DNA of 64,000 nt from Marsupella aquatica (lineage: Eukaryota > Plantae > Marchantiophyta): contig OZ316895.1 of the NCBI GenBank assembly GCA_973895155.1, forward strand, positions 18,113,880-18,177,879, written 5' to 3'. Below, piece after piece: positions 1,998-26,002 of the stretch. Below the pieces are notes generated by a model. The model was not told the DNA's origin and did no database searches. It was given only the letters and a program-made list of their open reading frames with translations. Within the stretch, counting starts at the first letter, position 1. The number at the start of each line of letters is the position of its first letter. A program made the translations under genes and the position numbers.

Positions 1998-2112
1998 GGT
2001 TGCCCCTAATTGTTTATATTTTCCTTGTTTTGTCCCTATACTAAGGTGTTCCTAGGGTGCCTTCCTGCTTTACCCACTTAACCGGCCGAGTGATTCCTGT
2101 CTAGGCATCACA
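1..2112 (-). repeat. 3' LTR (partial, truncated by the window edge)
   Basis: Near-identical to 10390..12501. Begins TGTGATGCCTAG on the minus strand immediately after AAGTGGGGAGCTA. Confidence 0.9.
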
Positions 2113-4149
2113 TAGCTCCCCACTTAATTGTGAAGCGTCCTCGCAAACAACTTCATCTTCGTCCATATAGTATTTCTTGAGGCGGTCATAATGGATGCGA
2201 ACTGGATATACCTCTCCCGTAATGTTGGCCAATTGTACGGAGCCATTGGGGAACATCATGGTTACTCTAAAGGGTCCTAACCAGCGAGTGTAAAGCTTTC
2301 CTGGAAACCTACTATACCTACTGTCATAAAGTAGCACAAGATCACCGGTATGAATACTAACTACTTTTAACCTTTTATCATACTGCTGCTTCATGATATT
2401 CTGTCTATATTCTACTCTCTCGGCTGAAATCATTCTCGCTTCCTCTAAAGCTTCTAACCTATATTCTCGCTCCTTTAGGCTCTCCTCCGCTGAGGCTCTT
2501 TCCTCAATTGTAACTTGAAATGTCGGTATCTCAAGTTGCATGGGTACCAGGGCTTCTTGTCCAAAGGTTAAGAAGAAGGGTGTATGACCGGTAGTGGATT
2601 TATAGGCAAGATTGTAAGCAAAAACAGCAGCAAACAATTTATCATCCCAATCGAGTTTGTTCTGAGCTACTGTCTTGTTCAATATCTTTCCTATAATTCC
2701 GTTTGCTCGTTCTGTCAACCCGTTTGCCTTTGGATGGTAGGGAGTAGTAGGCCTATGTTTAACTAAATACTGCTCATTTAAACGACTAATTATATCATTC
2801 AAAAAATGGGTTCCTCTATCACTAACTAATTCTAGGGGTGCTCCATACCTGGTGAAGATCTGCTCATACATGAATCTAGCCGTAGTAATTGCATCATCCT
2901 TCGTTGTTGGTCTGGCCTCTACCCATTTAGTTGCATAATCCGTAGCCAGGATTATGTACTTGTTCCGTCGAGGGTGGGTCAGTGGTTTCAGAGGTCCAAT
3001 GTAATCAATACCCCACTTCTCGAATGGTGCCAGAGGTAGAATAGGGTGTAGTGGATGCCTGGTGGACGCCCTTGGTCCTCCCGCTCGTTGACAAGGATCG
3101 CATTGTTTGATAAACTGATAGACATCTTTGTGCAAGGTGGGCCACCAGTAACCGGCATTTAATATCTTTTTAGACGTGGTTACTGGGGCAAAATGTCCTC
3201 CGGCCTCCTCTCCATGCATGGCCCGTAGGACTCGTTTTACCTCTCTCTTTTCCAAACATCTTTGAATCGTGCCGTTGATTCCATGCTTGTGCAGTATGCC
3301 TTTAATGCACTGATACTGTCTGACCTTCCGCACAAAGACTGCGGCTTGCTCTCGGCTTAATCCTGGCTGTAATCTGGAAGTGCTGAGAAATTGTAAAATC
3401 TCAGGGTACCATGTACCAGCTATTTCCACAACGAATAGCTCCTCGTCGGGGAATCGATCATCGATGCAATCCGTGGCAGGTTTACCTGTGATCCTTGAAA
3501 AGAAGTCGGCATTGGCATGTAACTTTCCCGGCTTGATCCTCAGCTCATAGTCAAACTCCTGTAATAGCAAAATCCATCTTGCTACTCTGCCTGTAAGGTC
3601 CGGCTTATTGACTAGGTACTTCAAACTTTCATGATCAGTATGAAAGATTACCTTGTACCCTAGTAAATAATGCCTAAACTTTTTACAAGAATAAATGACT
3701 CCTAATGCTTCTCTTTCCGTGGTAGAGTAGTTCTGTTCGGCATCGGCAAGCTGACGGCTTGCGAAGTATATGGGATGGTCCCTTCCTTTCTCATCCAACT
3801 GACTTAGTACTGAGCCAATACAGAAGCCCGAGACATCTACAAAAACATGAAAATCTTTGTTCCAGTCCGGTGCTATCATGACTGGGGCCTCTACTAACAT
3901 CTGCTTCAATTCTACCACCGCTGTGACTCGTTCGGGTGTGGGTTCGAAGTCTGCTCCTGCCTTGAGCATATTGGTTAATGGTAAAGCTAGCTTGGCAAAA
4001 TCCTTGATGAACCGGCGATAGTAACCAATGCATCCCAAGAAGGATCTTACATCCTTTATGTTCTTAGGTTGCATGATATCTAGCCATACTGCTAGCTTAC
4101 CTTTGTCAATCTCAATGCCCTTCCTTGATACCTTGTGACCTAGTAGCAC
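2101..4149 (-). CDS. pol: Pol C-terminal part: RT thumb, RNase H, integrase
   Basis: VRSFLGCIGYYRRFIKDF; FVDVSGFCIGSVLSQ and NYSTTEREALG (RNase H); H-x6-H...CDPCQR zinc finger; WGIDYIGP, SDRGTHF and NGLTER (DDE); WLGPFRV (GPY/F motif). Confidence 0.95.
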   Translation of the reverse strand: MLLGHKVSRKGIEIDKGKLAVWLDIMQPKNIKDVRSFLGCIGYYRRFIKDFAKLALPLTNMLKAGADFEPTPERVTAVVELKQMLVEAPVMIAPDWNKDFHVFVDVSGFCIGSVLSQLDEKGRDHPIYFASRQLADAEQNYSTTEREALGVIYSCKKFRHYLLGYKVIFHTDHESLKYLVNKPDLTGRVARWILLLQEFDYELRIKPGKLHANADFFSRITGKPATDCIDDRFPDEELFVVEIAGTWYPEILQFLSTSRLQPGLSREQAAVFVRKVRQYQCIKGILHKHGINGTIQRCLEKREVKRVLRAMHGEEAGGHFAPVTTSKKILNAGYWWPTLHKDVYQFIKQCDPCQRAGGPRASTRHPLHPILPLAPFEKWGIDYIGPLKPLTHPRRNKYIILATDYATKWVEARPTTKDDAITTARFMYEQIFTRYGAPLELVSDRGTHFLNDIISRLNEQYLVKHRPTTPYHPKANGLTERANGIIGKILNKTVAQNKLDWDDKLFAAVFAYNLAYKSTTGHTPFFLTFGQEALVPMQLEIPTFQVTIEERASAEESLKEREYRLEALEEARMISAERVEYRQNIMKQQYDKRLKVVSIHTGDLVLLYDSRYSRFPGKLYTRWLGPFRVTMMFPNGSVQLANITGEVYPVRIHYDRLKKYYMDEDEVVCEDASQLSGELCDA
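2113..2127 (-). promoter_or_regulatory. Polypurine tract (PPT)
   Basis: Minus strand TTAAGTGGGGAGCTA lies directly before the TG that starts the repeat. Confidence 0.8.
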
Positions 4150-5368
4150 CCCTTCGGTTACTGCAAAAAAAACATTTATCTGGGTGTAACTTGAGACCCA
4201 CCTCTCTACATCTCATGAAGGTTTTCCTGAGGTATTTAGCATGTTTCGATGCCTTCCCGAATACTGCAAAGTCGTCAATGAAGATTTCCATGAACTTTCT
4301 CAAGTAATCATGAAAAATGTTCACCATTAATCGTTGGAACATAGCTGGTGCGTTGCAGAGTCCAAACGGCATACGATTGAAGACATAGATCCCCCATTCC
4401 GTGATGAAGGCCGTCTTGATTTGGTCTTCCTGTCGAATCCTGATTTGGTTATAACCAGAGTATCCATCCATGAATGAATATAGTTCATGACTGGCTACCA
4501 TGTCTAGTACCATATCAGTAAACGGTAAAGGAAAATGGTCTTTTAATGTTGCTTCATTCAGCTTCCTATAATCCTGACAAACCCGGATCTTGGGTTTACC
4601 ATCGGGTCCAGCTTTCTTGGGAACTATCACAATTGGAGACACCCAGTCTGAATGCAGGACTGGAGTGATGAATCCAGCTTCCACTAGTTTGTCGATTTCT
4701 GTTTTGACCAGCAGGGAATACTTCGGGTTCATCCTTCGAATTGGTTGTCGAAATGATTTGGCTCCTAACATGAGATCAATTCGATGTTCCCCTAGTGTTG
4801 GATCTACTCCCTTTAGATCTTGGTGACTCCATGCAAACACATCCTGAAATTCAATCAATAAGTCACTGATCTCTTTCTCGAGCTCAGGTGCTAGGTTTCT
4901 CCCTAAGTTCAGTTCTCTTCCCTCTCCTAAGTCGAGCTTCCGATATTGCCGTGCTTGGATCATATTAATCTGCTTCTTCAAATTCGGGTCCAGTTCGGCT
5001 TCCAGTCTCTCTAATCTCATACCTCCATAAACTGGGATCTCGGCTGGACTAGCCGAGTCGGTCCCTTCCTTGGTGTCCATAGATTGTCCCCTTACCGGTC
5101 TATTCGGTTTTGAATTAGTGGTCGGCTCCCCTTCCTGCCTTGGCTCTGGATCGTGTCTGTCCATCTCATCCACCTCTTGCTCCTGAGAGTTAGGCCGCTG
5201 TGCTCTCTCGGCTTCTAATAGGGCCTCAATTTGTTCTGCCCTCGTAATCGGCTTGTATGCCGATCCCTTGGTATTTAATTCCTTGCCGATGATCGATGGC
5301 GTTGTGAACCCTGCCGGCTCTGCCACAACGCCTGCAGAAAATCCACTGTCCCTGCTACTGCTCCCCAC
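4112..5368 (-). CDS. pol: Pol middle part: spacer plus reverse transcriptase
   Basis: WVSPIVIVPKK, RVCQDYRKLN, DGYSGYNQI, MPFGLCNAPA, FIDD. Joined to the next ORF across a T8 run at 4165..4172. Confidence 0.95.
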   Translation of the reverse strand: MGSSSRDSGFSAGVVAEPAGFTTPSIIGKELNTKGSAYKPITRAEQIEALLEAERAQRPNSQEQEVDEMDRHDPEPRQEGEPTTNSKPNRPVRGQSMDTKEGTDSASPAEIPVYGGMRLERLEAELDPNLKKQINMIQARQYRKLDLGEGRELNLGRNLAPELEKEISDLLIEFQDVFAWSHQDLKGVDPTLGEHRIDLMLGAKSFRQPIRRMNPKYSLLVKTEIDKLVEAGFITPVLHSDWVSPIVIVPKKAGPDGKPKIRVCQDYRKLNEATLKDHFPLPFTDMVLDMVASHELYSFMDGYSGYNQIRIRQEDQIKTAFITEWGIYVFNRMPFGLCNAPAMFQRLMVNIFHDYLRKFMEIFIDDFAVFGKASKHAKYLRKTFMRCREVGLKLHPDKCFFCSNRRGATRSQGIKEGH

Positions 5369-8268
5369 TTAGCCGTTTCATCCAATTGGTCTACATCCTT
5401 TACTTCCTCCGGAATTGCAGCTAAAAAGGTGGATTCTATTGTAAAGCAGTCCTCGACCTCTTCGTCTTCTTCTTCCAAGTCACCTTCCATTGGTTCTTGC
5501 CATAATCCGCTGGGGGCTACCTCTGGTCCAAAGACACCTTCTTCGGTTAGGTTAGTGAGGCATTCTAACCAACGTACTTCATCGGCTGACTCCAGTCCAC
5601 TGTCGTACCCATCTACTTCCCTTATGCTTTTCCTACGGTCATCCTTAGTGTCCCAGGATACCGTGATAGAGGGGGTCCCGAAAGTGAACTGCTTTTTACC
5701 CCAATCTTCTATTACCTCGGCTAGGTACAGCCATGGCCTACCAATCAATAGTCGGAATGACGTAGGATTTACCGGCTTCATTACTACATAGTTAATGCTA
5801 AAGAAGATACCTCCTATCTCTGTCTTGATGCCGGTTAACACTCCCGTGGGAATGACCTGATATCCATTGGCCATGTTCAACACTCTTCCAGTCATCTCCG
5901 GTGTTAGACCCCACCCTTTTGCTGTTGAATCAATCATAATACATACCCCTGATCCTCCATCGATGGGTACCCGTAGTAATAATTCTCCTTGAATCATTAA
6001 TGGTAATGCTGGGGCTCCTTGATCTTCTTCTATCATTAGTACGTCGGATCTGGTTGCTACCTTGGGTAATCTCGGCTTGCCGAGAATAGCCTTCCTTAAT
6101 TGCTTCCGGAAGTACGGGCTATTTTTCAATAGTTGACCTACTGTTGCCGAGACTCTAGATTCTAGTACATCTTTAGCCAGGTCATAGGGAACAATCGGCT
6201 TCTCTTCTGGTGGTGTTTCCGTCTTGGATTCGGCCAGTTTTGCCACGCTAGTCTCCACAGCTGTTGGGTCTTCCGAAGCAAACAATGCTTTTGCTCGTTT
6301 TACATCCTTGGCAATGGCTTCGGTATTCTCCAGGGTTTCTAATTCTCTTAGTTGTTCCTTAACACTAGCCGTAACAGAGGGGTAGAACAACTTAGGATGA
6401 TCTCGATTGAAGTCGCTATCTTGTGAAGGATTGGTTTCACTGGTGGGCTCATGGCTTACCTGTATTGCCGGAGCCCTCCCTTCTCCTTCTGTTGATGTTG
6501 ACGAAGAGTCGATCCTTTCCTCCGTAACCTTCCCTTTATTTTTGGCCAGCCCATCCCACCTTTCCTTCCTTCTGGTAGATCGAGTAGAGACCCGGTAGCA
6601 ATCATGATCTAAATCCTCCTCTGAGAAGGTTGATAGGGCTTCGGCCTCATCAGCAGATGGTACGAACTCTGCCTCGGCATCCTCTTGCCATCCTAGTTCG
6701 ATGTGGTTGATTTGAACTCCTCCGGGGGTAGTACCTGGCGGTAAGATCTTGATCGGCAAAAGCTTATGATTTGCGGCCAGGCCTGCCAACCAAGTAGGAC
6801 ATTGCCCTAGCATATGACCTTCCTGTCGGCATCCCATACATAGCTGAGCTGGTTGTCCATCACCCTGTTTGCGTGCATTCGGGCATTCTCTAGCAAAATG
6901 GCCAGGTTGACCACAATTATAGCACGCCGCAAATCTTTGCACATTCGGCCTAGGAGGTACTGACGGGTTCTGAATAATCCGAGGATACATCTCTCCTGGA
7001 TTGTTCCTTAACCCTGACCACAGAGATGCAGGTCTGTTGGATAGGTCTCGTGCTCCAGTCTCACTGATGCCGAAAACACTATCAGCGGCATCTCCTAAAA
7101 AGTACTCTACTTCTCCCTGACATGGTCTGATCTCGGCCACATGCCGAACATGATTAGTATTAAGCTTAGGACACGCATCTTTATGGTGTCCGGTTTTATA
7201 ACATAAGGCACACCATACAGAGCTATCCTCCTGTACTACCTTCTTCTTTGGTTTTACCTCTGCAATGATAGCCTTAAGTTGCTCGGTAAGGGCTACGATG
7301 TTATCTGGTGGCTTAGCCTCCATCTTGACTTTCGTCTTCCCTCTCCTTCTGCCCTTCCTTTTCCTAGTTTTTTCTTCTTCAGAACTAGAAGATGACTCAC
7401 TCTTGCTACTCCCACTATCCGAGCTTGACTTATCACTTCTAGACTTCTTGGGATGTTTCTTCTTCTTATCTTTTTTCTTATGGGGTGATCCCTCCTCTGA
7501 TGAGGAACTCTCAGACTTAAGCTGTTTCTTCCGGCTTGTGATATCTGCATTAATGTATAATTGAATATCCTTAATTGCTTCGGCTAAAGTCTCCGGGTTC
7601 TCCTTCCTAATTGCAAAACTCATCTTCTGTGGCAAAGCATTCACCAACCATTGAAGTTGCATACCTTCAGATGCATTGGTCTTTGTACGTCTTACCAGTT
7701 TCTGAAAGCGTTGCAAGAACTTCCTGAAGGATTTGTTCTCCTTGAACCAAAGTTGTCCCAACTTGAGCACTGCTAGTTCTGAAGTTCCAATGGGTCGAAA
7801 CTCCTTAACAAAGAGTGTTTTGAAGATATCCCAGATGGCTTGATCTTCCACATCTAATGCTCTGTACCAAGGCCTAGCCTCACCCTTGAACAGGCCGGGA
7901 AGAATCTGCATCTTGATGGCCGATTCTCCATTTGCTGCAGCGGTTCCCTCGAAATCATCCAACCATTCGTCCGGATCCTCATCTCCTCTCCCATGAAATG
8001 CCTTGTAATGTATGCGCGACCGCTGGCTCAATCTGGTCCCTGGCCTCTCGTCTGGCCGTGCCTCTGGTTCCCCCATGTCGGTTGGAGACTCACTTCTCCT
8101 TACCGACTCTTCTTCTGGTATGTCTTCTTCGACGCCACTCCCAGTTTCGGAGCTACCAGCTCTTTCTGCCCCTCTCAGTCGCTGTGTATCATGCCACCCG
8201 GCGAGCTGCTGTAGTCGAGCTCTCTCCCGTTGAATCACTCTTTCTTCCCTCGGCGTAAGGTCAGTCAT
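5275..8268 (-). CDS. gag: Gag-protease polyprotein (997 aa)
   Basis: Retrotransposon gag core (EDPDEWL...LFKGEARPWY...F), three CX2CX4HX4C knuckles, and aspartic protease motifs IDGGSG and LLIGRPWL. Confidence 0.93.
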   Translation of the reverse strand: MTDLTPREERVIQRERARLQQLAGWHDTQRLRGAERAGSSETGSGVEEDIPEEESVRRSESPTDMGEPEARPDERPGTRLSQRSRIHYKAFHGRGDEDPDEWLDDFEGTAAANGESAIKMQILPGLFKGEARPWYRALDVEDQAIWDIFKTLFVKEFRPIGTSELAVLKLGQLWFKENKSFRKFLQRFQKLVRRTKTNASEGMQLQWLVNALPQKMSFAIRKENPETLAEAIKDIQLYINADITSRKKQLKSESSSSEEGSPHKKKDKKKKHPKKSRSDKSSSDSGSSKSESSSSSEEEKTRKRKGRRRGKTKVKMEAKPPDNIVALTEQLKAIIAEVKPKKKVVQEDSSVWCALCYKTGHHKDACPKLNTNHVRHVAEIRPCQGEVEYFLGDAADSVFGISETGARDLSNRPASLWSGLRNNPGEMYPRIIQNPSVPPRPNVQRFAACYNCGQPGHFARECPNARKQGDGQPAQLCMGCRQEGHMLGQCPTWLAGLAANHKLLPIKILPPGTTPGGVQINHIELGWQEDAEAEFVPSADEAEALSTFSEEDLDHDCYRVSTRSTRRKERWDGLAKNKGKVTEERIDSSSTSTEGEGRAPAIQVSHEPTSETNPSQDSDFNRDHPKLFYPSVTASVKEQLRELETLENTEAIAKDVKRAKALFASEDPTAVETSVAKLAESKTETPPEEKPIVPYDLAKDVLESRVSATVGQLLKNSPYFRKQLRKAILGKPRLPKVATRSDVLMIEEDQGAPALPLMIQGELLLRVPIDGGSGVCIMIDSTAKGWGLTPEMTGRVLNMANGYQVIPTGVLTGIKTEIGGIFFSINYVVMKPVNPTSFRLLIGRPWLYLAEVIEDWGKKQFTFGTPSITVSWDTKDDRRKSIREVDGYDSGLESADEVRWLECLTNLTEEGVFGPEVAPSGLWQEPMEGDLEEEDEEVEDCFTIESTFLAAIPEEVKDVDQLDETAKWGAVAGTVDFLQALWQSRQGSQRHRSSARN
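5285..5344 (-). promoter_or_regulatory. Candidate programmed -1 ribosomal frameshift signal
   Basis: In-phase G_GAU_UUU at 5344..5338, a 5-nt spacer, then a perfect 9-bp stem (GGCGTTGTG 5332..5324 with CACAACGCC 5306..5298). It lies inside the overlap of the 0 and -1 frames. Confidence 0.7.
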
Positions 8269-8315
8269 TACCTACGCTTCCGTTCTAACTTCATATCTCA
8301 CGGCTTAAGAAATGC

Positions 8316-8333
8316 CCCCTCCATCTAGCGCCA
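8316..8333 (-). promoter_or_regulatory. Primer-binding site (non-Met tRNA type, TGGCGCTAGATGGAGGGG)
   Basis: TGG start (complement of tRNA CCA) follows the LTR end ...CACCACA and TTTT. The cognate tRNA was not determined. Confidence 0.7.
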
Positions 8334-8337
8334 AAAA

Positions 8338-11300
8338 TGTGGTGCGTCCCATGGCTCCCTAAACCCAAGAAACCCCCCTGCTCAAGCCGATTCCCGCAGG
8401 TTTCGTGCTTGGCGAGGCCGTTTCCGCGGCTTAGCGGCATGGGACGCTGCTAACCTTCTACTACTACTATTAACATTTTACACACATATACTGGACAGAT
8501 CCTTCATCGGGTCATGAGATACGTAGCCGGCCTAATATAGGCCTTCCCCTGTCTTCCCCTGTCTTCCCCTCCGTCTTGTTAGGTATGTTTGGATTCCGCC
8601 GCCGGAATGATCCCCAATAGGCTTGGTTAAGCCGCTAAGACCTCTCTTAGCTCGACACATCCAACTCTCACTCCCCTGCTTACTTTCCTTCCTTCTGTTG
8701 ATGTGGGCACTCTTCACACAAGTTAATGCGACACACAAATAGCAAAATGACTCATTCTGACTGAGTCATACCATGCACTTGCCATACAAACAGTACATCT
8801 CATACACAAGTTCTGCGAACTAAGCCGTGAGGCCAACTCTATTCAGCTCTTAGGCATGAGGAAACATGAATATACACAAGGGTCACTGTATGACTAACCG
8901 AGAGCTTCTCGTACTACTTGATCCCAGCCCGGCTGGTGCAAACTAAAAACTTGCTAAAGAAGAGGCCCTGAGCTCCCCGCTGCCCAGGTACTTATCCTGG
9001 TAGTGGATCCGCCATTCTTTGCATCGTAAGCCTAATCTACTTAACAGTAATCTACTTGCCCGAATCTACCTATGTATAGCAAGGCAGGAGCACAAGTGTT
9101 GCTCCTACCAGTGGGACCGCAATCCCACTAAGCTAAGTGTCAGGGCCGCTCCTGGTTCTGATCCTAATCCTAAACGTGGAGATCCGCGCCCGCCCTGCCC
9201 ACTCACGCCTCCTCCCTCCACGTCCGCCCTCCCTAAAAGGAACGGCGCCCTTGCACCGTCACGACACCGGTGGTGGATCCTTAATGGACGCCCCCAACGC
9301 TTCCTCCTCAGCCACTGCCGTAGGCTCATTCCCTGACAGATTACCTGCCCTTGACTCAACTCTCCATTGGCCTGACTGGGTCCACCATCGGCGTCGGCAT
9401 CGGCTCGAGAATCGGTTACGGCCTTAGCCTCGGCTACGGTCTCCCCGGCCTGCTCAAGAGGCGGATCTGGAATACTGGCCTCCTTACTGAGTAGTTCGGC
9501 TTGGGCCGCACCATCCCTACCTGTGATCATAGCGGGATCTATTGCCGTATTCATGTCGGAGGATGGTGCTGGTTCTACCTCTTTGGTCACCACGGCTTGT
9601 GGAGTCGGATTACTCCTTGACCCTGAAGGTTTCCGCTTTTTCTTCTTTTCTGGTTCGGCAGCTGGTCCCTTCCCCTTCCCACTTACCTCCGGCACTGGTG
9701 CAGTTGGCGCGGCTTTTTCTTCGGCCAGTACCACTCCTGGTAACTTGGTTGCCCCAATTGGAGTTGGGCCTGATGAAGACAAGCACCTAAATACTGCGGC
9801 TTGTTTCTTCAGCCGCTCCGTTTGGTTGTCGGCCCGCCGCTGGAGGTTCTCCATCTTTCTCGTGATTTCCTCCAACTCCTCCTGGGTCTCATCCAGGTCC
9901 TTGCATGCCTCCTCTAGTTCCTTATGGGCTTCCTCCCGTTCTTGTTTCAAGGTAGTCCTCTCCTCCTGGGTTGCTTTTAGCTCCTTGTCGAGCTCTGCAA
10001 TGATGACAGACTCCATCTGGTTTATCTTGGCGTAAGTCTGTTCGAGCATCTCGTCCTTCTCCCTTAGGTCGGCCTTGAAGCTGGCCGTCAGGGACGCAAG
10101 CTCCTGCTGCAGCGCCATAATCCCTTGATAGGATTTCCCTAACTCGGCCTCCTTCTGCTCAAGGGCTCCGCGGATTTTCTCGAGCTCCCCTTTCAACGCC
10201 CATTCCTTTCTTTGGGTCTCCGCCATGGCCCGGCTGTTGGCTGTTATGTGGGCCTCCTCTGTATTCTTCAGCTCTTGCTTCCACTTCTCCCTCTCTTTGA
10301 TCGTGTCGGCCAACTCTTCCTGCGTCTGAGTCAGTTTATCCTTGATATTCTGATTATCAGCCTGCGCGGTGTCCAACTGCCCCTGCATGATGTTCAGCTC
10401 ATGTCGTTTAATCCGTAGTTCATCTTGGGCTTTCTTGGCCGTCCTTAGATCTTCAATCTCGGCTTCCATCCTCCTAAGCCGCCGAATGACCTCGTCCTTC
10501 TTGCTTCTCTCTAAAGCCACCGCTTCTTCTAATTGGTGCTTCTCCAACTGCTCCCTATGGAAAAAGGGTCCTACCTCCAACTCCTCTCCGTCGGTAGGAG
10601 CTTGAGGCAATTCTGCCTCAGATTCGGAGCTTGAGGTTCCCACGTACATTCGAACACCTGGCTTGGATTCCGGCCTGATTCTCTCCTTGTCTCCAGCAAA
10701 GGGGTTTTCTCTTGTGAGCCGGTGTAGGCCTACCTCTGTAGTAGTGTCCTGCATTGTTGTCGTTGCCGTTGTTGTTGCCGATGCCGATTTCTTTTCTTTC
10801 TCCAGTAGTTTCAGCAGACTCTGCATGCCTGGTTGCTGCATCGGCAAGTCCTCCTTCCTGGGCCTAAACACCTGCTCGATCGTAGGACTAACAGGTGGTT
10901 GAGGCTTCTCAGCCAACGGCCTCGGCGTTGGAGCTTCCTCGGGTGCCCTTACCTGCAGGGGAAGTACCGGGGCAAAAGTCTGACCTCTGGCATACCGGCA
11001 CAACAGCGGCATGTGATAGCCCAGCCGCGACACGCTCCCCGTGCCGATTAGCTGCTGCTCCTCCTTTAAGATCTTCTTCAATTGGTTGAGGAGGTACCCG
11101 TTGTAGTCCCGGCTTGGGTCTGGCCTTTCTGCCAGATAGACCTGTGCCTTGCCGATCTCTGCCCTCGGGAAGTTACAATGCATGGTCACCCGCAAGAAGT
11201 CGATCATCTCTCCTATGTGCGGGTTGGTGCAGGTGTTCCGGAAGAAGCCATTCTTTGTTGATGGCCCGGGGAACGACCGGAACTCCTTGTCAGGCAAGGT

Positions 11301-12501
11301 CTTCCTGGTATCAACTTTGGTCTTATTGCCTATCGGCAGGCCAAACACTTCGGCAATTACCTTGGGAGTAAGATAGAAATCCTTCCCATATATCCTCGTG
11401 CAATTGGTCTCGGGTTCCCATGACCCCACGAATTCTAATAGGTCTGACTCCGGTACCTCCGGCTTCAGCCATGGTAATCTTACAAAGGCCTCCAAGCCGG
11501 ATCCGGCCATGAAGCCTTGGTACTTCTTGGTCTGCATGGCCGTAAAGCATGCATCCTCCTCCCGTGCAAAATGTAGTTGCACCTCCATCGGTAGGGTTGC
11601 CGCCCAGCCCTTCCAGGTGTCATCCCTGGTTGGAATGGCCTTGATGGGATCGACCTCCTCCTCTTCGGCTTCTCCCTGCCTCCTGTTCTGCTGCTCGGCT
11701 GGCTTCTTTGGTGCCGCCGACCTCGTTCTTTTTGCCGGGGTGGCTTCATCGTTGACGGCTCCCTTCCTCTTCATCTCTGCTGCCGTGGAGGTTTCTCCTA
11801 GCACCGTTGCCTGGGTCCACCTTTCCGTGCTACCCTTTAATTCCCAGTGTATGTCGTTGCAGTTCTTGATGGCCTCTCGGATGCCGACGACGCTGTCTTT
11901 GCAAAACAGAAGATCGTCGAGTTGATTGGAAGTAGGCGTCCACAGGAACTCGTCCTTGATGAGTTTGCCTCCTAAGAAAGCCGTCTTCTGCAGCTCCCAC
12001 AATCGAGCGAGCTCCTGCCATTCTCGAGCTGCCCTTTCTGGCTCCTCGTCCTCGTAAGTCTTGATGTACTCAGTTGCCCGTTCGAACAGGCATCCCCAGA
12101 AATGTGCCGCTTGATTGACGTTGCTCATACCCTCCTTAGGTCGATCGTCGGTATCTACTCTCTCCCCGAGTGCTTGCCTAAGCAGCTGACAGTAGTTGGC
12201 CTCCCGTAGTCGTCTGCCTAGTTCGTGCTCGCAAATGAGCCACCATCTCCTGCAAGCGCTCCTTACCCCTCTCCTCCGCCGGTCCTTCTTCCCGTTGATC
12301 CTTCCTAGCCGCCGACGCTTAACGCGCCCTAACCCTAATCGGGTTTTCACCCTCAGCCTTACCTCCGGCCTCGGCCCGGGTTCCATGGTTGCCCCTAATT
12401 GTTTATATTTTCCTTGTTTTGTCCCTATACTAAGGTGTTCCTAGGGTGCCTTCCTGCTTTACCCACTTAACCGGCCGAGTGATTCCTGTCTAGGCATCAC
12501 A
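8338..12501 (-). repeat. 5' LTR, 4164 bp, containing a long ORF
   Basis: Termini TGTGATGC...GCACCACA form a 7/8 inverted match. Followed by the PBS. Identity to the 3' copy stops exactly at 12501/2112. Confidence 0.88.
9105..12386 (-). CDS. LTR-encoded 1093-aa protein (about 1007 aa if it starts at ATG 12128): PMD/plant-transposon-like domain plus long coiled coil
   Basis: Uninterrupted 3.3-kb ORF. The motif EFVGSWEPETNCTRIYGKDFYLTPKVIAEVFGLPIG resembles Plant Mobile Domain cores. E/K/Q/L heptad region at ~aa 600-860. Homologous to 26003..28255. Confidence 0.85.
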   Translation of the reverse strand: MEPGPRPEVRLRVKTRLGLGRVKRRRLGRINGKKDRRRRGVRSACRRWWLICEHELGRRLREANYCQLLRQALGERVDTDDRPKEGMSNVNQAAHFWGCLFERATEYIKTYEDEEPERAAREWQELARLWELQKTAFLGGKLIKDEFLWTPTSNQLDDLLFCKDSVVGIREAIKNCNDIHWELKGSTERWTQATVLGETSTAAEMKRKGAVNDEATPAKRTRSAAPKKPAEQQNRRQGEAEEEEVDPIKAIPTRDDTWKGWAATLPMEVQLHFAREEDACFTAMQTKKYQGFMAGSGLEAFVRLPWLKPEVPESDLLEFVGSWEPETNCTRIYGKDFYLTPKVIAEVFGLPIGNKTKVDTRKTLPDKEFRSFPGPSTKNGFFRNTCTNPHIGEMIDFLRVTMHCNFPRAEIGKAQVYLAERPDPSRDYNGYLLNQLKKILKEEQQLIGTGSVSRLGYHMPLLCRYARGQTFAPVLPLQVRAPEEAPTPRPLAEKPQPPVSPTIEQVFRPRKEDLPMQQPGMQSLLKLLEKEKKSASATTTATTTMQDTTTEVGLHRLTRENPFAGDKERIRPESKPGVRMYVGTSSSESEAELPQAPTDGEELEVGPFFHREQLEKHQLEEAVALERSKKDEVIRRLRRMEAEIEDLRTAKKAQDELRIKRHELNIMQGQLDTAQADNQNIKDKLTQTQEELADTIKEREKWKQELKNTEEAHITANSRAMAETQRKEWALKGELEKIRGALEQKEAELGKSYQGIMALQQELASLTASFKADLREKDEMLEQTYAKINQMESVIIAELDKELKATQEERTTLKQEREEAHKELEEACKDLDETQEELEEITRKMENLQRRADNQTERLKKQAAVFRCLSSSGPTPIGATKLPGVVLAEEKAAPTAPVPEVSGKGKGPAAEPEKKKKRKPSGSRSNPTPQAVVTKEVEPAPSSDMNTAIDPAMITGRDGAAQAELLSKEASIPDPPLEQAGETVAEAKAVTDSRADADADGGPSQANGELSQGQVICQGMSLRQWLRRKRWGRPLRIHHRCRDGARAPFLLGRADVEGGGVSGQGGRGSPRLGLGSEPGAALTLSLVGLRSHW

Positions 12502-14011
12502 GTTTGCGAAACAATTGCAAAGCGGGTTGCCTCGCAATTGTTTCGCAAACTCTATTATAACCTTTTTCCCGTAAGGTTTGCGAAGCCATTGCGAAGCAAT
12601 CCGATTCGCAGTCTATTTCGCAAACTTAAATATATTTGAATTTGCGAAGGTGGGAGTTTCGCAAAGCTTGTTTCATTTTGAAAAACGTTTAGTGTTGAGT
12701 GACAAATGTTTGTTAGGGTAATGGGGTTTTTTTCTGGTTAGGGTACCCTTTTTACCCTTTTAGGATTCCTTTTTTGCTTAAGTACCCTTAGTTACTAACC
12801 CGGGCCCCTTATGTTTTGGTGTTTCATTTGTTTGTGGTAGTATAAGAGGTACCGCCGCAAGATAACAGCAAAGGAGATGGAGATAGGGGCAGAGCATGGG
12901 GCCAGACATCTCTTTGAGTTGGTTGATGCAGAGTTGGCTAGTGTGAGTGATTTGTAGTACCCTTTCTAAACCCGCACCCATTCCATTTATAAGGTTTATA
13001 CATTTTTCCTATTAACCCTAAACCCGAATTAACCTTGTGACATGGAAGCAGGATAAGGAGGAGCAGGAGGGGAGTGAGGATAGCAGTGAGGAGGATAGCG
13101 GCGCTGATGATGGGGACACTACCGGGGCCACCATGAGTGGGTCCAGAGGGGCAGGGAGTGCTGCCACACCTAGCACACCAGGAGACCAGGAGGATGATGA
13201 TGAGGATGATGACGATGATGAGGATGAGCCAGATGGGGAGGAGCAGCAGGCACCACCACCACCGCCACCACCACCACCCCCCCCCTCCCGTCCAGCTCGT
13301 CCCGCCAAAAGCAAGAAGGACAAGGGGAAGAGGCCAGCAAAGAGGAGTAGGCGGGCTCCATTATAGAGGATGCAGATGTAGTTCACTCCATATGGCATAT
13401 GGATTAGTCAAAGGACAGTGTCTTGGTATTTGATACCCCATAGGGTTTTAGAAAACCCTAATTTTTGTACATTCAGGGATTTTTGGCATATATAAAGTTT
13501 TGCTTTGGTATCTTCATGTGGAGGAATAAGACCCCAACCCAATTATGAACCCAAATATACAAAACCCAGCCCTCAAACTATCCTTGCAAAACACATGCGA
13601 ACGCCATACTATCGCAAACTTGCCATACATTGAGTATTGGAACATTGCGATACTTTTGGTTCCGCAATTGTGCGACACCCTGATTGACGCAGTTATGCGA
13701 TACCATATGAATGGCAACGGAATTGTCAAGACAACAGCTTCGCAAATAAGTTATAGTTCAGAGCGCGTCGCAAACCGATAAAGAGTCTGTCGAGATCGCA
13801 TAAATGTGATTTATGTGCGATAAAATAAGTTTCGCAGTGTGCGAAGGTGTTGCAAAGGGGTTGCAAAAGTCCAATTGCGAAGCTGTGGGTTTCAAAGAAT
13901 GCGAAAGGGTTGCGATGCGTAGCGTTTCGCAAACGCCGGAATTTCATAATTTGGTCCTTTGTTAGTTGCGATGGGACGGGGTTCGCAAAAGGGGTCGGTA
14001 GTGTTGTAGTG
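12502..14011. mobile_element. CACTA (EnSpm) transposon end, interrupted by the Gypsy element
   Basis: Minus-strand terminus CACTACAACACTACC at 14011. Dense TTTGCGAA/TTCGCAAA-type motifs in both orientations at 12502..12665 and 13590..13990. An acidic/proline-rich exon-like ORF lies at 13037..13366. Confidence 0.7.
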
Positions 14012-14920: not shown

Positions 14921-16498
14921 TCAAGTCAACTTGCCCAAGTTAGAAGCAAAATTGGTTTCAACTTCCTTCACAAAACATGAGGATTCCTCCTTTAGGATGG
15001 AAACCTCATGACAATGTTGTAGCTTACGTCCAGGTGTCACCCATCCTTCCGCGTCCTGCAAGGTAGAATCAGGGATGAATTGTAAGGATTTCTGATTTTT
15101 TGCTTTCTTCTTTTCCTTCTCTTTTTTCTTATCTTCAGGCGGTGATCTTCTTGCCAGCTTTCGGGCTCTCTCCTTTTTTTGGGCGGTGCGGGAGATAAAT
15201 CGCTCGTACTCAGAAACCTCCATGTCAGATGGAATCTCAGGGGTAGAATTCTCATCCTCGGCCTCTACCATTTCGTCAGAAACACCAACGTTTAAAAGCA
15301 AAGGCACTACTGGTTCAGATTCTGGGGCACTAGGACTAGTTCTGGAATGCAAGAAAGAAAGCTCAAGAGTAGCGACAGAGTTCAAAATAGGCTTGTCCCT
15401 ATTCATAGCTTGCAAGTCATGAAGCACTCCCGGGATGGCATTCATGTCAGAAAAGAGATGAGCAGACGTTGCTTGCAAATTCAATCTGTCAGTAGATTCG
15501 TCAATTGCCCTGTCAATAGCAACTGCACGAGAATCCCCCTCAAGATCTTGAGAACTCCCCAAAAGTGCAAATTCTCCTTCCGCATTCATAGGTAGTCTTT
15601 GAGCCAATGGAGTGATACTCCTCCCTGTTGATAGGGGCAAGGTAGCAACGGTCGCAGGTTGGCTTGGCAGATCTAAATTAAGGGCGTTAGCCTCCGATGC
15701 AGCAACAACCAATGGCTCAGTAGTCGCAAGCACTAGGGGAGTGGGAACCAGGGGAGTTGGCAGCTCTTTAGCAAGTTGAGTGGTTGCAGGCGCGGGCACC
15801 TCATTTACTCGACAGTCCCGGGCTAAATGGCCCTTCTTATTGCAGCTAAAGCAATGAAATGGAATATTCTTGAATATTACTGGTTGCCATATAGAAAGAT
15901 CAACCTTGATCTGAACCTCAACACTCAATGGCACCTCCCGCTTGATATCCCAAAGTACACAGGCCCTATCGTGTGGATAAGTGCTCAGATCGTCACTCTG
16001 AATATAGTGAAGAATGTCGCCCAAGGACGCCGCAAGCTTCCGACGACAAGGTTCAAGTAGCAATGCGCGGAATGGAATCTCAATCCACACAGGCAATAAG
16101 GTATAAGATTCACTTCTGATGTCAAAGGAAGGATCCCAAGGGAAAGTGAATACAAATTTTTGCTCCAAGAACCAGGGGGCACAAGCCAGTGCAAAATCTC
16201 GATGTTTGGGATTCCTAAATGCTACCATATAAAAGTTTTTCTCGACGAATTTGACTTGCAAAATAGGCCAATTCATCTCAGAAACGAAGGTCTTCTCCAC
16301 CCAAAACTTAAATGTGGGCAGCATCGGTGTGCGATCGGTAAAATAACACATCATGGAGCAGTTATACAGTTTGGTCACTGTTTCAGCAGCCTCTTCAAGG
16401 GACCATTGAATAGTGGTATGTAGTTTAGATGGCCAATCATGGACAGTCAGATTTGAAATTCGTCGTAGAAGGGGAATGCACGCCTCTGCCTCCTCCAT
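14921..16498 (-). CDS. L1-type LINE ORF1 protein (DUF4283-like region plus zinc knuckle)
   Basis: KNFYMVAF...RDFALACAPWFL...W, PVWIEIP and CFSCNKKGHLARDC are typical of plant L1 ORF1. Broken upstream frames extend to ~17047. No intact ORF2 follows. Confidence 0.85.
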   Translation of the reverse strand: MEEAEACIPLLRRISNLTVHDWPSKLHTTIQWSLEEAAETVTKLYNCSMMCYFTDRTPMLPTFKFWVEKTFVSEMNWPILQVKFVEKNFYMVAFRNPKHRDFALACAPWFLEQKFVFTFPWDPSFDIRSESYTLLPVWIEIPFRALLLEPCRRKLAASLGDILHYIQSDDLSTYPHDRACVLWDIKREVPLSVEVQIKVDLSIWQPVIFKNIPFHCFSCNKKGHLARDCRVNEVPAPATTQLAKELPTPLVPTPLVLATTEPLVVAASEANALNLDLPSQPATVATLPLSTGRSITPLAQRLPMNAEGEFALLGSSQDLEGDSRAVAIDRAIDESTDRLNLQATSAHLFSDMNAIPGVLHDLQAMNRDKPILNSVATLELSFLHSRTSPSAPESEPVVPLLLNVGVSDEMVEAEDENSTPEIPSDMEVSEYERFISRTAQKKERARKLARRSPPEDKKKEKEKKKAKNQKSLQFIPDSTLQDAEGWVTPGRKLQHCHEVSILKEESSCFVKEVETNFASNLGKLT

Positions 16499-17732
16499 TC
16501 TGAGGTGAGCAGCGGTCCGTTCGCATTCGCAAGCCTGAGATTTGGTCTCCTACCGATCATCCATGTGCGTATCCTGCTCCTCCAGACCCATCCTTTTGCC
16601 AATATCCTCTCTATGGAAATCGCCATAAGCAGGTGCCTTGCGACCTTCCAAAGCATCCATTGATACCTCAGGAGGGGCTTGCTCGGAATCCCAACGCAAA
16701 AATCCATTAGTGTGGTTCCGTGTAGGCCTAAGACCAAACCAACTCTGAATTGGTTTAGAATCATGACTAGGAGCAGTTGACCCCCGTGTAGGCAGGCTTG
16801 ATTCAGAGCGGACGTCTTGGCCAGAGTAGCTCCCCTCATGAAGTGATGACTAGAGGGGTAAAGCAAGCTCATGAACAGGGGGTGGTTGACGGGCATTCAA
16901 ACTGGGATCCAGCCAGTGTCCGGCTCCACCTTCAGCATTGCGTTGAGCTGCGTCCCATTGAGCTTGACCCTCACGGAGATAGGCCGGGCCAGACATAAGA
17001 GCTCCTCGACCTCCAGAGGCCATCAAGTTACAAGATGGATATGCCATAATATATCACCCAAGATAGGGGTACGAGGTACGTGATAGAGAGACCCCAATTC
17101 CAGCAAGAAAAGGAAAGGTTATGAAAGGAATGGCACTATAGGATCGGTGTAAAAATCAGAATTCTTACGTGAATGAGTACGTCAAGGTGCAAGCTTAAAA
17201 GCAGGGTTCATCGAGGGAGAAGGCAAGGGCTCACCAAAAGTGACAGGAATTGCAGCTACCACAGCGTGATCCGCACCAATCTCCCCTTGTTCCGCCGTTT
17301 TGAGTTTACGTGATCATTCAGCACTGATGCCGCGGCAAATAGAAACACAATCGGAGCAAACAAAATACCCTGTTACCCAAAAAATGCTATAGTCTCACCG
17401 CTTATAGAAACCAATGTGTAAGCAAAGCACTTAAACCCTATAAACCTTCGTTGTGATTACTTAAGAACTTCGGGGACCTAATCTAGGTTATTGCGCGAGT
17501 CCACCGCATTACAGCGTCCAATGATCAAAAAAAGGTGTCAAAAGATAGCAATGAGAACCTCCATTTTGGAGGTAGAAGCAATCAGTTCCCAACAGCAAGA
17601 TTGACCATCAATGGCAATCCAAAGACCCACTCGACACAAAACCTGAGAACTTCAGCCCACTTCAGCTCCTTCAGTTCTCCTATTTCAGCACTTTCAGCCT
17701 CCTAACTCGTTGAAGATACCTAAAGTTAAGAC

Positions 17733-20700
17733 AATGGATCCTGAAAAACTAATTTTTGTGAATGTCACTTCTAACAGCAATCTGGGTGTTGCTTTGGTGG
17801 ATACAGGCGCAACCGCCTGCTTCATAAGTGGGCAAGTATAACCACCGTGTCAGGAAACAGTAAATAGGAAACAGGAAACAGTTAACAATAAACAGCAAAA
17901 TAGATGAAAAAATTTTGAAAAAATTTTGAATTTTTTTTGTTTAAATTTTTGACATTTTTTTACTAGCGCCCCAAGCTAGTAATAGTAGCACCTGGCGCTA
18001 GCCAAAAATGATCGTTTTTAAAAATATTTTGAAAATTTTGAGTTTTAATGAGAAATTTTTTATATCTCATTTTGCTGATAACAGGAAATCATTTTCCTGT
18101 TTCCTGGCACGGTGTAAAGCCTCGGCGGCAACTTGTCTTGGGGTGGACGTGCAAGAGTTACTACAACCGTTAGTGTCCAAGTTCGCCAACGACACGAAGG
18201 GGATAGTGTCAAGGGTAGACTTCGGGAAGAGGTCATAGGCAAACAACAAATTTTTGTTAGTCAAGAGATGTTCTATGTTCTAGACGGTCTAGCCGTAGAC
18301 TTCATTTTGTCGGTAGGTTATCTCAGAAAGCACAATGTTACCTTGAAACCGGGGGTGAGGTGCTCCATTTTCCCAATAAGGGCGGTGAGCCCATCGTTGT
18401 ACACAAAATTACCAAAAATAAAGAAAGATTTCTTAAAGTAAGTAAAGTGTCGTGGATGTCTCCGTGTGTATCGGCGAAGCAATGGTGGAAAGACTTCAAG
18501 GGTGGACATGAATGTTTCTTCTTCCATCTCCACCCAACTAAGGAGGCTGCGTTGCAGCCAAAGGTAAAGTCAGCTAAGGTTGGGCCCGACTGCGGTCGAA
18601 TTCCTGAAATTTTAGAGGAATTCAACGACATTCTCTCGCATAAGCTACCTAAAGGTTTACCCCGCGGAGAGAAGTGGATCACCAAGTTGAGTTGACCCCG
18701 GGATCGGCTCCTCAGGCTAAAGCTCCTTATCGTCTGAACCTAAACAAGCGAATGATGTTGAAGAACGCCTTGGAAGTGTTGATCGACCAAGGGTTCATTC
18801 GCCCTAGTAAGAGTCCTTACGGGGCACCCGCGCTGTTTGTGTCCAAAACGGATGGTACTTTGAGATTGTGCACAGATTACCGGGCCCTCAATAAGCAGAC
18901 GGTAAAGAACAAGTACCCGTTACCTCATATGGATGACCTCTTTGATTGCCTCTCTGGGGCTAAGAAGTTTTCAAAGGTGGACTTGCGGTCTGGGTATTAT
19001 CAGATCCGCATGGCTAAGGGAGACGAGTATAAGACCGCGATGCGCACAAGGTTCGGATCCTATGAGTTTTTGATTATGCCGTTTGGGTTGTGTAATGCAA
19101 CCGCAACGTTCATGAAGATGATGAATACCATCTTTCATGACTTGTTGGACCAAGGAGTGGTCGTCTTTATTGATGACATCCTAATCTACTCGAAAATGTT
19201 GGAGGAGCATGTGCAATTTCTCAGAGAAGTATTCTCTCACCTTCGTAAGGCTTGTCTCTTTGCTAAACCTAGCAAGTGCGAGTTTGCGATGAACGAGATT
19301 CAGTTCCTCGGCCATACCTTTACCCCAGAAGGGATTACGCCTAGTCAGGATAAGCTTAAGGAGATCAAAGAATGGGAGCGCCCGTCCAATGTAAGGCAAG
19401 TTAGAGCCTTCTTAGGATTTACGGGGTTCTATCGGAGATACATGAAAGACTATGCGAGGACCGCGAGGCCCCTAAACGCACTAACGTTGAAAAACAAAGT
19501 GTTTGTGTGGACACAGGATTGCGAGTTAGCATTCCTAGAACTTAAGCGGTTAATGATAACGCCGCTGGTTCTAAAGTTACCTGAGATGGGGAAGCCGTTC
19601 AAGATTTGGACATACGCAAGTGATTATGCCATCGGCGCCTGTCTTCACCAAGATGGGCGTCCTGTAGCCTTCGAGTCATGTAAGTTGGAAAATCACTGGA
19701 TCACGCCGAAAAGGGAAATGTATGTTGTGATCTAGATGCGTTGAAGAAGTGGGAGATTTACCTGAAGAACGGTCCCAAAGTGGTAATACACACAGATCGC
19801 TTGCCGACCGGGTACTTCAGTTCTAAGCCAAGGCTGAACCCCAAGGAAATGCGCTAGCAGATGTTCTTGGCGGATTTTGATTTTGAAGTCCGCCACGTTC
19901 CAGGGAAGACAAATATGGCAGCGGACGCGTTATCACGTAAGGACCAACATCGTGTCAATGGGATCATGATGCTCGAATTCGAGTGGCCAAAGGTTCTGGC
20001 CGCGGCGTATGTGGATGACAGGTTAGCTAAGGAATGGCAAAGCAATGGGGGTAGTCGAGGCAAAGTAAGGCACATATTGTTGGGGTTGGATACGACGCAT
20101 AATGTCCAGTTATGGCGATACAAGCATAGACGTGTGTACATACCAGAGTCTCTAAGGTTAGAGGTTCTGCAAAAGTACCATGACTCGCCCTGGGGAGGGC
20201 ATGGAGGACAAGCCGCTACGTATTGCAGCATGTCGTGAGATGTGTATTGGCCGGACATGAAGCAATCGGTCCTTCAACATGTGCAAAGTTGTTACTCGTG
20301 CCAAAAGAACCGAACGGTCTATAGGGCAAAAGGAGGACTGTTGCAACCCTTACCAGTAGCTGCGGCTCCATGGGAGTCTATCTCCATGGACTTGATTGTT
20401 AGATTACCTGAGTCCCACGGCAGTAACTCCATCTTAACAATCGTGGATCGTTTTTTCAAGATGGCGTATTTCTTGCGTACTATGAAGATGGTTTCGGCCT
20501 GAGAGGTTGTCGGTCTAGTGTTTGACAATGTCTTCCGACAATGGGGATTGCCGTTGCATATCCTGTCCGACCACGATACCAAGTTCACGGGCCATTTCTG
20601 GAAGGCATTGTTTCGGTTATCCGGAACAGACCTGACTAGGGGATCAGCGTATCATCACGAGATAGATGGCCAAACGAAACAGGTTAATGGTATCGTGGAG

Positions 20701-21453
20701 GACTACTTGCGTCACTTTGTGATAGCCAATCAAAAGGATTGGGCGAAGCATTTAACAATGGCCGAGTTTAGGTATAACTCGACCAAACATTCGGCGACGG
20801 GGTTTGTGCCGTTTGTGTTGGCCACAGGGAGGATGCCAAGGGCGCCCTCCTGGTTTATAAATCCGGAAGCTTGGCGGACGGAAAGCAAGGTTCCTTCTAT
20901 GGACAATTTTATTTGAGAGCGGCGCCTAGTTGTGGAAGCGGCTACCAAGGGTATGACCCTTGCCCAAAGTTGGTACAAGCAGCAAGGGGATAAACATCGA
21001 CGCCAGGTAAGCTTTGAAATTGGGGAGAGCGTCTGGTTGCAGTTGAGACCTGAGCAATACCACGGGAACATAAGTAGGAAGCTGGCTCCCAGATATGCGG
21101 GGCCCTATCGCATTATACGATGGGCCCACAAGGATAATCCGGTTTCGGTGGTGTTGGAGACACCCAAGGAAATGGGCGTGGGCAAAAGCTACCATGTTAG
21201 CCGGCTCAAGAAGTTTGTCAAAGACGATGATCCCAACCGGGATCAGGTCTTGCGTCCGGACGCCATGCTGGTGGAGGACGCTGAGGAGTTTGAGGTGGAG
21301 GCAATTCTGGACCACCGTTACAAACGCAAGTTGGGAAGGCAAATCTTAGAGTATTTGGTGAAGTGGGCTGGCTATGATCAGGCCGAGAGTACTTGGGAAC
21401 CGGAGGAAAATTTGGGTAATGCCTCAGAGATCCTTGGAAGCTATCGTAAGTGA
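17733..21453 (+). pseudogene. pol: Chromovirus pol pseudogene
   Basis: ALVDTGATACFIS (protease, ~17790); 18674..19735 RT/RH (FIDD); 20242..20916 integrase (WESISMDL, SDHDTKF); 20932..21453 chromodomain EEFEVEAILDHR...YLVKWAGY...STWEPEENL. Multiple stops and frameshifts. Confidence 0.9.
17843..18114. mobile_element. MITE inserted in the chromovirus protease
   Basis: 18-bp TIR CACCGTG(T/C)CAGGAAACAG with an AT-rich interior. Protease-like coding resumes after it. No clean TSD. Confidence 0.7.
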
Positions 21454-25500: not shown

Positions 25501-25507
25501 TATAAAA
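25501..25507 (+). promoter_or_regulatory. TATA box candidate upstream of the solo-LTR gene
   Basis: TATAAAA followed by a CT-rich stretch, about 100 nt before ATG 25609. Confidence 0.5.
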
Positions 25508-25608
25508 GGGGAGCCAACCCTTTGTAGTGCACCAGTCCATCAGTCCGTGCGCCAGCTTCGACCCCAGCTCTCTCGTTCTCTCTAGGTCGCCACTACTATC
25601 TCCTCTGA

Positions 25609-25971: not shown

Positions 25972-26002
25972 CGGCGAGTCCAGTACCAACCGTTCGACAA
26001 GG

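Follow-up and report, generated by a model that had tools for sequence, protein, structure and literature searches.

A liverwort Ty3/Gypsy retrotransposon with a 4.2-kb long terminal repeat that holds a whole accessory gene

A whole gene lies inside the long terminal repeat of element 1

A stretch of 64,000 nucleotides from the liverwort Marsupella aquatica (GenBank assembly GCA_973895155.1, contig OZ316895.1, positions 18,113,880 to 18,177,879 of the forward strand), hereafter called the window, carries on its minus strand a retrotransposon, element 1, with a whole gene inside its long terminal repeat (LTR). Self-comparison of the window by BLAST aligned 1..2112 with 10390..12501 at 99.43% identity, ungapped and with 12 substitutions. 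Of the two copies, read on the minus strand, the one that starts at 12501 opens with TGTGATGC and is preceded by unrelated flanking sequence; the one that starts at 2112 opens with the same letters and adjoins the purine tract AAGTGGGGAGCTA. A hairpin plus polypurine tract (PPT) module occupies 2113..2152 (minus strand), next to the LTR start. The upstream copy ends with GCACCACA at 8338, followed by TTTT and then by a primer-binding site (PBS) that starts with TGG (8315..8333, minus strand, 4 nt behind the LTR) and that we take to be of the tRNA-Asn type. In reverse transcription, the 5′ end of an LTR is set by the PPT and its 3′ end by the PBS. Because both boundaries are fixed in this way, 8338..12501 (minus strand) is the 5′ LTR of element 1: it is 4164 bp long, has TG..CA ends and a terminal inverted repeat (7/8 positions), and a PBS follows the 5′ copy as a PPT precedes the 3′ copy. 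The 3′ LTR (1..2112, minus strand) is cut by the window edge, so that 2112 of the 4164 bp are present twice inside the window and the remainder of the 3′ copy lies beyond it. The expected target-site copy, GTTTG, is at 12502..12506 (plus strand), its partner lying beyond the window edge. The two LTRs diverge by 0.57%, and element 1 is therefore a young insertion; three assumed rates give an age of 0.2–1.1 million years.

The extent of the LTR was also followed by sequence depth. Contigs of four public runs (X1–X4) were mapped on 2113..13600, depth being summed over contigs and not equal to copy number. The summed depth rises at the bin holding 8338 and falls at the bin holding 12501. The median LTR/internal ratios are 4.0, 3.4, 1.6 and 1.8 in the four runs, and 4.1, 4.0, 2.4 and 3.7 when the LTR is compared with the nine nearest internal bins (4794..8240), which avoid most cross-matches from the pol genes of other families. 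In X1 and X2, each LTR bin, those of the gene included, is deeper than each internal bin. An internal gene would track the internal depth; the gene stands at LTR depth, which supports its place within the LTR. Among the 13 runs listed, none is an RNA run holding the sequence. The earlier note, made from the letters of this stretch, had proposed a 4164-bp LTR at this place, and the PPT and PBS boundaries, the 99.43% identical second copy and the depth step at both boundaries all bear this out.

The LTR-resident open reading frame (ORF) spans 9105..12386 (minus strand), with 1093 codons from the first ATG. The frame as a whole (9105..12440) is open over 1111 codons, with the first ATG at 12386, compared to 289 for the longest frame in 300 base shuffles, and it is open over all 683 codons visible in the 3′ LTR copy. 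Homologues of the N-terminal domain start around residue 90, and the second ATG (12128, yielding 1007 amino acids) is therefore the likelier start; an ORF of about 1000 residues filling most of the LTR and open in the 3′ copy had been described before, and the description holds with this refinement of the start. A TATA-like word at 12403..12407 (minus strand, LTR position 95) is the inferred candidate promoter of the ORF. The stretch from LTR position 125 to gag contains 62 ATGs, which weighs against a single unspliced RNA for both genes.

We asked whether the arrangement might instead be a tandem or segmental duplication, in which only the final few hundred bases would be true LTR, with the ORF as an internal 3′ gene of the neighbouring copy. 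The left target-site duplication (TSD) lies beyond the window and relatives with an internal ORF exist (see below); however, the boundary between unrelated flank and the upstream copy coincides exactly with the TG next to the PPT in the second copy, the depth of the ORF tracks that of the LTR, no PPT module is found after the ORF, and a second family in the window includes a solo 4-kb unit with a near-perfect TSD. We consider such a duplication extremely improbable. The LTR is supported by its PPT and PBS boundaries, by the depth step, by the solo LTR of the second family and by four related loci in which the gene lies behind the module, and we consider it very likely that element 1 has a 4.2-kb LTR holding a whole gene.

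A homologous gene is carried by a solo LTR of a second family

A solo LTR of a separate family (family 2) is located at 25143..29153 (plus strand); it is 4011 bp long, with TG..CA ends and the flanks GCGCT and GTGCT (4/5 identical). It contains a gene of 776 codons stop to stop (25925..28255, plus strand), 29% identical to the element 1 ORF over 185 amino acids (E 2e-19). Just upstream is a frame of 120 codons (25609..25971) in another reading frame, preceded by TATAAAA at 25501. The element 1 LTR and the family 2 solo LTR share no alignable DNA except for a 29-nt hairpin-forming motif near their 3′ ends (8580..8607, minus strand, in element 1; 89.7% over 29 nt, E 3e-4). In X1, the depth is 98–1,452 in the flanking bins and 82,204–364,892 inside the solo LTR, so that each end is marked by a change of two to three orders of magnitude; X2 and X4 display the same step, and X3 is without most of the flank. 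In X3, five contigs have a purine-rich loose end before 25143 that finishes like the element 1 PPT (agreement 0.51). Contigs crossing the solo-LTR junctions extend by fewer than 31 letters to one of the sides and were not taken to bridge them. The earlier note had predicted that recombination between LTRs would leave a gene-bearing LTR behind; this is what we observed, in a family separate from that of element 1.

Of the 20 variant places listed for the solo-LTR gene, 12 fall on third codon positions (p 0.013). This bears on the view that the gene is a functionless passenger, open merely through the youth of the copies, for which one may cite the low divergence of the element 1 LTR pair and the 9 of 12 changes that alter an amino acid. 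Against it stand this third-position excess, a core that is 29% identical between the families and is kept across loci with unalignable LTR DNA, and a confidently predicted fold, and we judge a passenger very unlikely.

The core of the LTR-encoded protein is predicted to fold like VANC21

The protein encoded by the element 1 LTR comprises a helical N-terminal domain, a globular core, a low-complexity linker, a long coiled coil and a basic patch (KKKKRK). Word-indexed protein searches gave no homologue of the ORF, and a full HMMER search of 1.84 billion representatives gave 25 relatives; four of the 10 homologue clusters looked up are Calypogeia fissa proteins, the others being unnamed or 'hypothetical'. 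Pfam searches returned just weak coiled-coil matches, and the N-terminal helical domain gave structural matches to generic helical hairpins only.

The conserved core domain (10962..11603, minus strand; 214 amino acids) was modelled from a 25-row alignment (pLDDT 86.9). The best match of this model in the Protein Data Bank (PDB) by Foldseek is DNA-bound VANC21 (E 0.022, probability 0.97, TM 0.50), the next match having an E value of 1.6. VIA-align of the core against VANC21 gave a Z score of 8.2 with an rmsd (root-mean-square deviation) of 4.0–4.1 over 201–203 aligned residues (201 of 214 in the full scan); VANC21 was the sole chain at Z ≥5 among 48,161, the runner-up being at Z 2.2. With a second, longer model VANC21 was again top by VIA-align over the core (Z 8.3, 215 residues aligned). 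A PDB sequence search with the core profile gave no match, and in the viral fold library none of 53 matches reached E ≤0.001.

VANC21 is encoded by VANDAL21 Mutator-like transposons (PDB 9LNJ/9LNK). The LTR-encoded protein resembles it in its predicted fold of about 200 residues and in being a transposon-encoded accessory protein with a coiled coil, and differs in that the identity is 8%, no Pfam match to DUF1985 was found, the host element is a retrotransposon and not a DNA transposon, a tandem motif array was not found in the LTR, and a VANC-like activity is a prediction from the fold. The retrotransposon context and the missing Pfam match set the protein apart from formal VANC members, which are defined by a VANDAL Mutator-like origin and a DUF1985 match; our statement is that it may work like VANC. 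According to PMC5735166, VANC proteins bind short motifs in the non-coding DNA of their elements and cause family-specific demethylation in trans, and PMC13547354 reports that VANC oligomerises via its coiled coil and has a fold common to the host plant mobile domain (PMD) protein MAIN. PMD-A is described on Gypsy elements of angiosperms (PMC5418596). Proteins of this group (Gypsy PMD-A, host MAIN and MAIL1) thus share with the LTR-encoded protein the reported VANC fold and a Gypsy context (PMC5418596, PMC13547354), whereas no PF10536 match was found here and the PMD-A description concerns angiosperms.

Sequence links to other extra ORFs were also sought. The internal ORF of a related locus, L012, matches the core profile (E 2e-7 to 2e-9) and has a match to Pfam Transposase_32 at E 4.9e-5 and 23.7 bits, below the cut-off of 45, so that it may form a weak bridge between the core and Transposase_32. 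Atlas leads were Transposase_32, ATHILA ORF-1, PMD and DUF1985, at 0.81–0.89; the window proteins had no match to the PF20167 and PF03078 profiles.

An envelope (env)-like membrane protein serving cell-to-cell spread would fit the presumed ancestral place of the gene downstream of pol, where the available parts of PMC7264820 and PMC1142308 describe env-like ORFs. However, no transmembrane helix was found in the LTR-encoded protein, the highest 19-residue hydropathy of the two window proteins being 0.9 and 1.13, and the fold match is to a DNA-binding protein. The window proteins were therefore not placed in the env-like class, which requires a transmembrane segment, and such a role is scarcely credible. 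These data point to a predicted VANC/PMD-fold DNA-binding protein, neither env-like nor sag-like.

From the modelled fold, we give an anti-silencing or chromatin role of the LTR-gene product an even chance. The gene may be real and have another nuclear job, as an activator of LTR transcription, an integration tether or an import helper for the integration complex. The same fold is reported for MAIN and MAIL1, host PMD proteins with a part in silencing (PMC5418596, PMC13547354), no motif array was found in the window LTRs, and PMC7264820 treats the function of extra ORFs in plants as unknown. The sole solved relative is nevertheless a DNA-bound, transposon-encoded anti-silencing factor, and VANC is likewise described as a globular domain with a coiled coil (PMC13547354); we therefore regard another nuclear job as a serious but unlikely alternative.

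Element 1 is an Athila-like non-chromovirus

Behind its 5′ LTR, element 1 encodes gag (capsid and CCHC knuckles) with the protease (PR) in one ORF (5275..8271), the first part of reverse transcriptase (RT; 4112..5368), and the remaining RT, RNase H (RH) and the integrase (INT) in an ORF (2101..4212) that is in a frame other than that of the first RT part and whose stop codon is within the 3′ LTR; all are on the minus strand. This copy thus has a frame break near 4.2 kb, within RT. A slippery-like site, G GAT TTT (5338..5344, minus strand), lies in the overlap between gag-PR and RT and is followed by a predicted stem-loop of -20 kcal/mol; we take this site to be of a type known from plant viruses, and together with the stem-loop it constitutes a candidate for programmed -1 frameshifting. 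At 5361..5371 (minus strand), 11 nt repeat the PPT core exactly, at the gag-PR/RT frame junction and just ahead of the slippery-like site; this copy may be due to chance, or may be a second plus-strand primer or a relic. The insertion target of element 1 (12502..14011) has 18 short subterminal-type repeats per kb, compared to about 0.4 elsewhere, and ends in GTAGTG, which presumably resembles the end of a CACTA element.

Element 1 is about 14.5 kb long, with the order gag-PR-RT-RH-INT, and has neither a chromodomain nor a second RNase H, a single RNase H being followed by the integrase; this is the organisation of Ty3/Gypsy non-chromoviruses. The best named relatives of its RH-INT region are from liverworts (Calypogeia fissa, at 55–64%, Riccia sorocarpa and Marchantia polymorpha), and the viral contigs searched contained no pol relative. 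Membership of the Tat clade (TatI-III, Ogre, Retand), which is defined by an additional RNase H domain (aRH; PMC6317226, supplement 3), fails because this domain is absent. Phygy and Selgy are short elements without an extra ORF and with a 4-bp TSD (NCGN in Phygy), and element 1 fits neither, with its 14.5 kb, its long extra ORF and its GTTT(G) flank, which is not NCGN; the flanks of the solo LTR agree over 5 bp. The absence of an additional RNase H agrees with Athila, a clade further characterised by a PBS for tRNA-Asp, -Asn or -Ala; a literature search with the PBS motif of element 1 yielded no relevant paper. By comparison with the clade table of PMC6317226, as far as available, we describe element 1 as Athila-like only; the backbone of a 44-row integrase tree, from which REXdb reference sequences are absent, is not supported and hence gives no assignment to an Athila branch.

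Element 1 shares with the Athila clade the gene order, the absence of chromodomain and aRH and a PBS a few bases behind the LTR (PMC6317226, PMC11728184, PMC1142308, in the parts available), as well as a candidate 5-bp TSD and an accessory ORF for which L012 provides a weak link to Transposase_32. It differs in that it changes frame between PR and RT, and in that the known 3′ extra ORF of Athila (ATHILA ORF-1, PF03078, or Transposase_32, PF20167) is located between pol and the 3′ LTR, whereas that of element 1 is inside the LTR.

Related loci display two layouts of the accessory gene

A metagenome scan with the RH-INT alignment yielded 26 loci, 24 of them with the integrase end present. Of these 24, 11 have the module of hairpin and PPT with a TG after it, and the remaining 13 have none on the contig; the pattern that selects the 11 loci was written after inspection of the window and was not blind. 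A profile built from the 11 loci matches the window module at E 1.5e-9 and nothing inside either window LTR. A G-rich word near LTR position 3520, considered as a relic PPT, was discarded as this profile gave it no support.

The module lies after a long ORF in three loci (L001, L011 and L012) and directly after INT in eight (L002, L004, L005, L007, L009, L010, L015 and L016). L001 is a textbook internal extra ORF, with the order INT, G-rich tract, homologous ORF, module, LTR of about 1 kb, PBS and gag. In L002, L005, L007 and L010, a homologous ORF is present behind the module (E 0.011, 0.0047, 0.0017 and 3e-4, respectively, compared to 0.13 for the best of 252 decoys), and no PBS is found in the 1.4–3.7 kb (up to 3.65 kb) available after the module. 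For both L002 and L004, the TG start and the end adjacent to the PBS are inverted repeats of each other (9/9 and 10/11), and the LTR of L004 is at least 2.26 kb long. TCCGGA-type words, strongly enriched in the LTRs of L002, L004 and L007, were considered as a VANC-type target array and rejected, being also frequent in the pol genes of these loci. The three loci are TCCGGA-rich throughout, and the non-coding LTR DNA of L004 and L007 is about twice as dense in these words as pol.

Two integrase trees were built: (i) a 20-row tree, rooted on three seed-plant rows under a simpler model, with unlabelled or long-branch rows left out, and (ii) the 44-row tree, under a richer model, with six short loci left out. 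In the 20-row tree, the internal-ORF loci are rejected as a single clade (p-AU 0.007). As they do not form one clade under the seed-plant root, the internal layout is likely ancestral, and the accessory gene has probably moved from the internal region into the LTR, likely in one or two moves. The earlier note had named short LTRs with the ORF between pol and the LTR, in other copies, as a sign of duplication. Such an arrangement does exist, but in other families (L001 and L012), where it looks ancestral, and not in the family of element 1.

How the gene came to lie in the LTR can be explained in two ways. The LTR may have been enlarged by a switch of plus-strand priming to an older, INT-proximal purine tract, which would have swept the gene into U3, the LTR region before the RNA start, without recombination. 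Nine loci (L001, L003, L006, L008, L011, L012, L014, L018 and L023) do have a G-rich tract just after INT, at a position equal to that of the element 1 PPT. However, the window tract bears the hairpin module typical of LTR-proximal PPTs, the module profile misses the INT-proximal tracts, and no relic module follows the ORF in either window LTR. Since the window PPT carries the LTR-proximal type of module, a recombination that may have placed the gene behind the module is preferred, and a priming switch appears rather improbable.

A model for element 1

With moderate confidence, we propose that element 1 is a young Athila-like Ty3/Gypsy element with an accessory gene in its 4.16-kb LTR, the product of which is predicted to be a DNA-binding protein of the VANC/PMD fold and likely counters silencing at the element's own chromatin. 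In this model, the start site of the genomic RNA would lie within the final few hundred bases of the 5′ LTR, and the RNA would run through gag-pol and then the gene-bearing U3 of the 3′ LTR. With the plus strand primed at the module that adjoins INT, both ends would receive the gene, and the TATA-like word near each LTR 5′ end would drive the gene separately, solo LTRs included. In the nucleus, the product would then attach to DNA of the family and act against silencing. A broader version is possible though doubtful: in a bryophyte Athila-like lineage, an anti-silencing gene of the VANC fold may have been transferred to the LTRs, hundreds of solo LTRs would be dispersed, independently transcribed sources of a trans-acting, family-unsilencing factor, and the fold of VANC and MAIN would go back to the retrotransposon accessory domain Transposase_32/ATHILA ORF-1/PMD-A, which liverwort elements would already have possessed.

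A number of observations weigh against the proposed model. For the architecture, the left end of element 1 and its TSD copy lie beyond the window, the overall depth ratio, itself a sum over contigs, is below 2 in two of the four runs, and the far end of the LTR is off the contig in L005, L007 and L010. For constraint on the gene, the 8 listed variant places of the element 1 ORF have no third-position excess (3/8), and some copies have frame-changing indels in its last 250 bp. For its origin, the internal ORF of L011 has no score against the ORF profile, the LTR-resident loci form one group at just 69/65 support in the 20-row tree, and the 44-row backbone lacks support. For its function, the structural match to VANC21 is of moderate strength (Foldseek E 0.022, 8% identity, rmsd of about 4), VANC21 was not among the Foldseek matches of the longer model, and the core of both window ORFs has no direct Pfam match. 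Neither window LTR has an enriched 6- or 7-mer in its non-coding DNA, unlike the VANC targets described in PMC5735166. A shared fold does not establish a function; MAIN, reported to have the same fold, promotes silencing (PMC13547354).

Precedents and implications

The element 1 ORF is about three times longer than sag of mouse mammary tumour virus (MMTV). As the earlier note had stated, sag is a precedent for an LTR-encoded gene, and the extra ORFs of plant elements sit between the two LTRs. The literature consulted agrees on sag (PMC12548423) and has the plant ORFs internally, upstream or downstream of gag-pol (PMC7264820, PMC6317226, PMC11728184, PMC3485330 and PMC1142308). Element 1 and MMTV both have a whole gene in the LTR (U3), at both ends, as in the solo-LTR layout (PMC12548423, in part), whereas MMTV is an animal retrovirus, sag is a superantigen and for the element 1 ORF the viral fold library yielded no similarity. 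Plant elements are known to have LTRs as long as 5 kb (PMC6317226 and PMC3485330). Ogre and Retrosat2/RIRE3 combine LTRs of 3–5 kb with an extra ORF in the element; in the same portions of these sources, however, this ORF is upstream of gag-pol and analysed apart from the LTR, Ogre has an aRH and Retrosat2 belongs to another clade. Athila and Phygy are listed in a liverwort, without LTR-gene detail in the part available (PMC12885004). In the literature searched, where subscription papers are thinly covered and REXdb element tables might list such elements, we encountered no plant retrotransposon whose LTR contains an entire gene, and no description of a two-PPT Athila layout or of long LTRs in liverworts. 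The LTR-resident whole gene is an unusual layout for a plant retrotransposon, the extra ORFs and long LTRs themselves being already known.

The formation of solo LTRs is normally a deletion of element genes by the host; with the gene in the LTR, it would keep the accessory gene and its promoter. Extra ORFs are widespread in plant retrotransposons, and the predicted VANC-like DNA-binding fold offers a testable answer to the question of their function. The existence of relatives with both layouts makes the move of the gene from the internal region to the LTR traceable, and reverse transcription evidently copes with a coding U3 of about 3.5–4 kb. Such LTR genes may also be annotated as host genes, and the unnamed Calypogeia fissa proteins among the homologue clusters may be cases of this kind.

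Other features of the window

A decayed chromovirus-type Gypsy element with a chromodomain-like C-terminus is located at about 17500..23400 (plus strand); its presumed 3′ LTR (21914..23396) is 65% like 39290..40752, which is likely a solo LTR. A LINE ORF1-like frame (DUF4283, zinc knuckle) is found at 14921..16549 (minus strand), and two Copia RT fragments are arranged in inverted orientation at 51388..52971 (plus strand) and 53979..54530 (minus strand). Finally, a single-frame ORF of 607 codons with a SET domain (34732..36555, minus strand; Pfam E 5.9e-21) lies in transposon-rich surroundings and could be a retrocopy or a captured histone methyltransferase gene.

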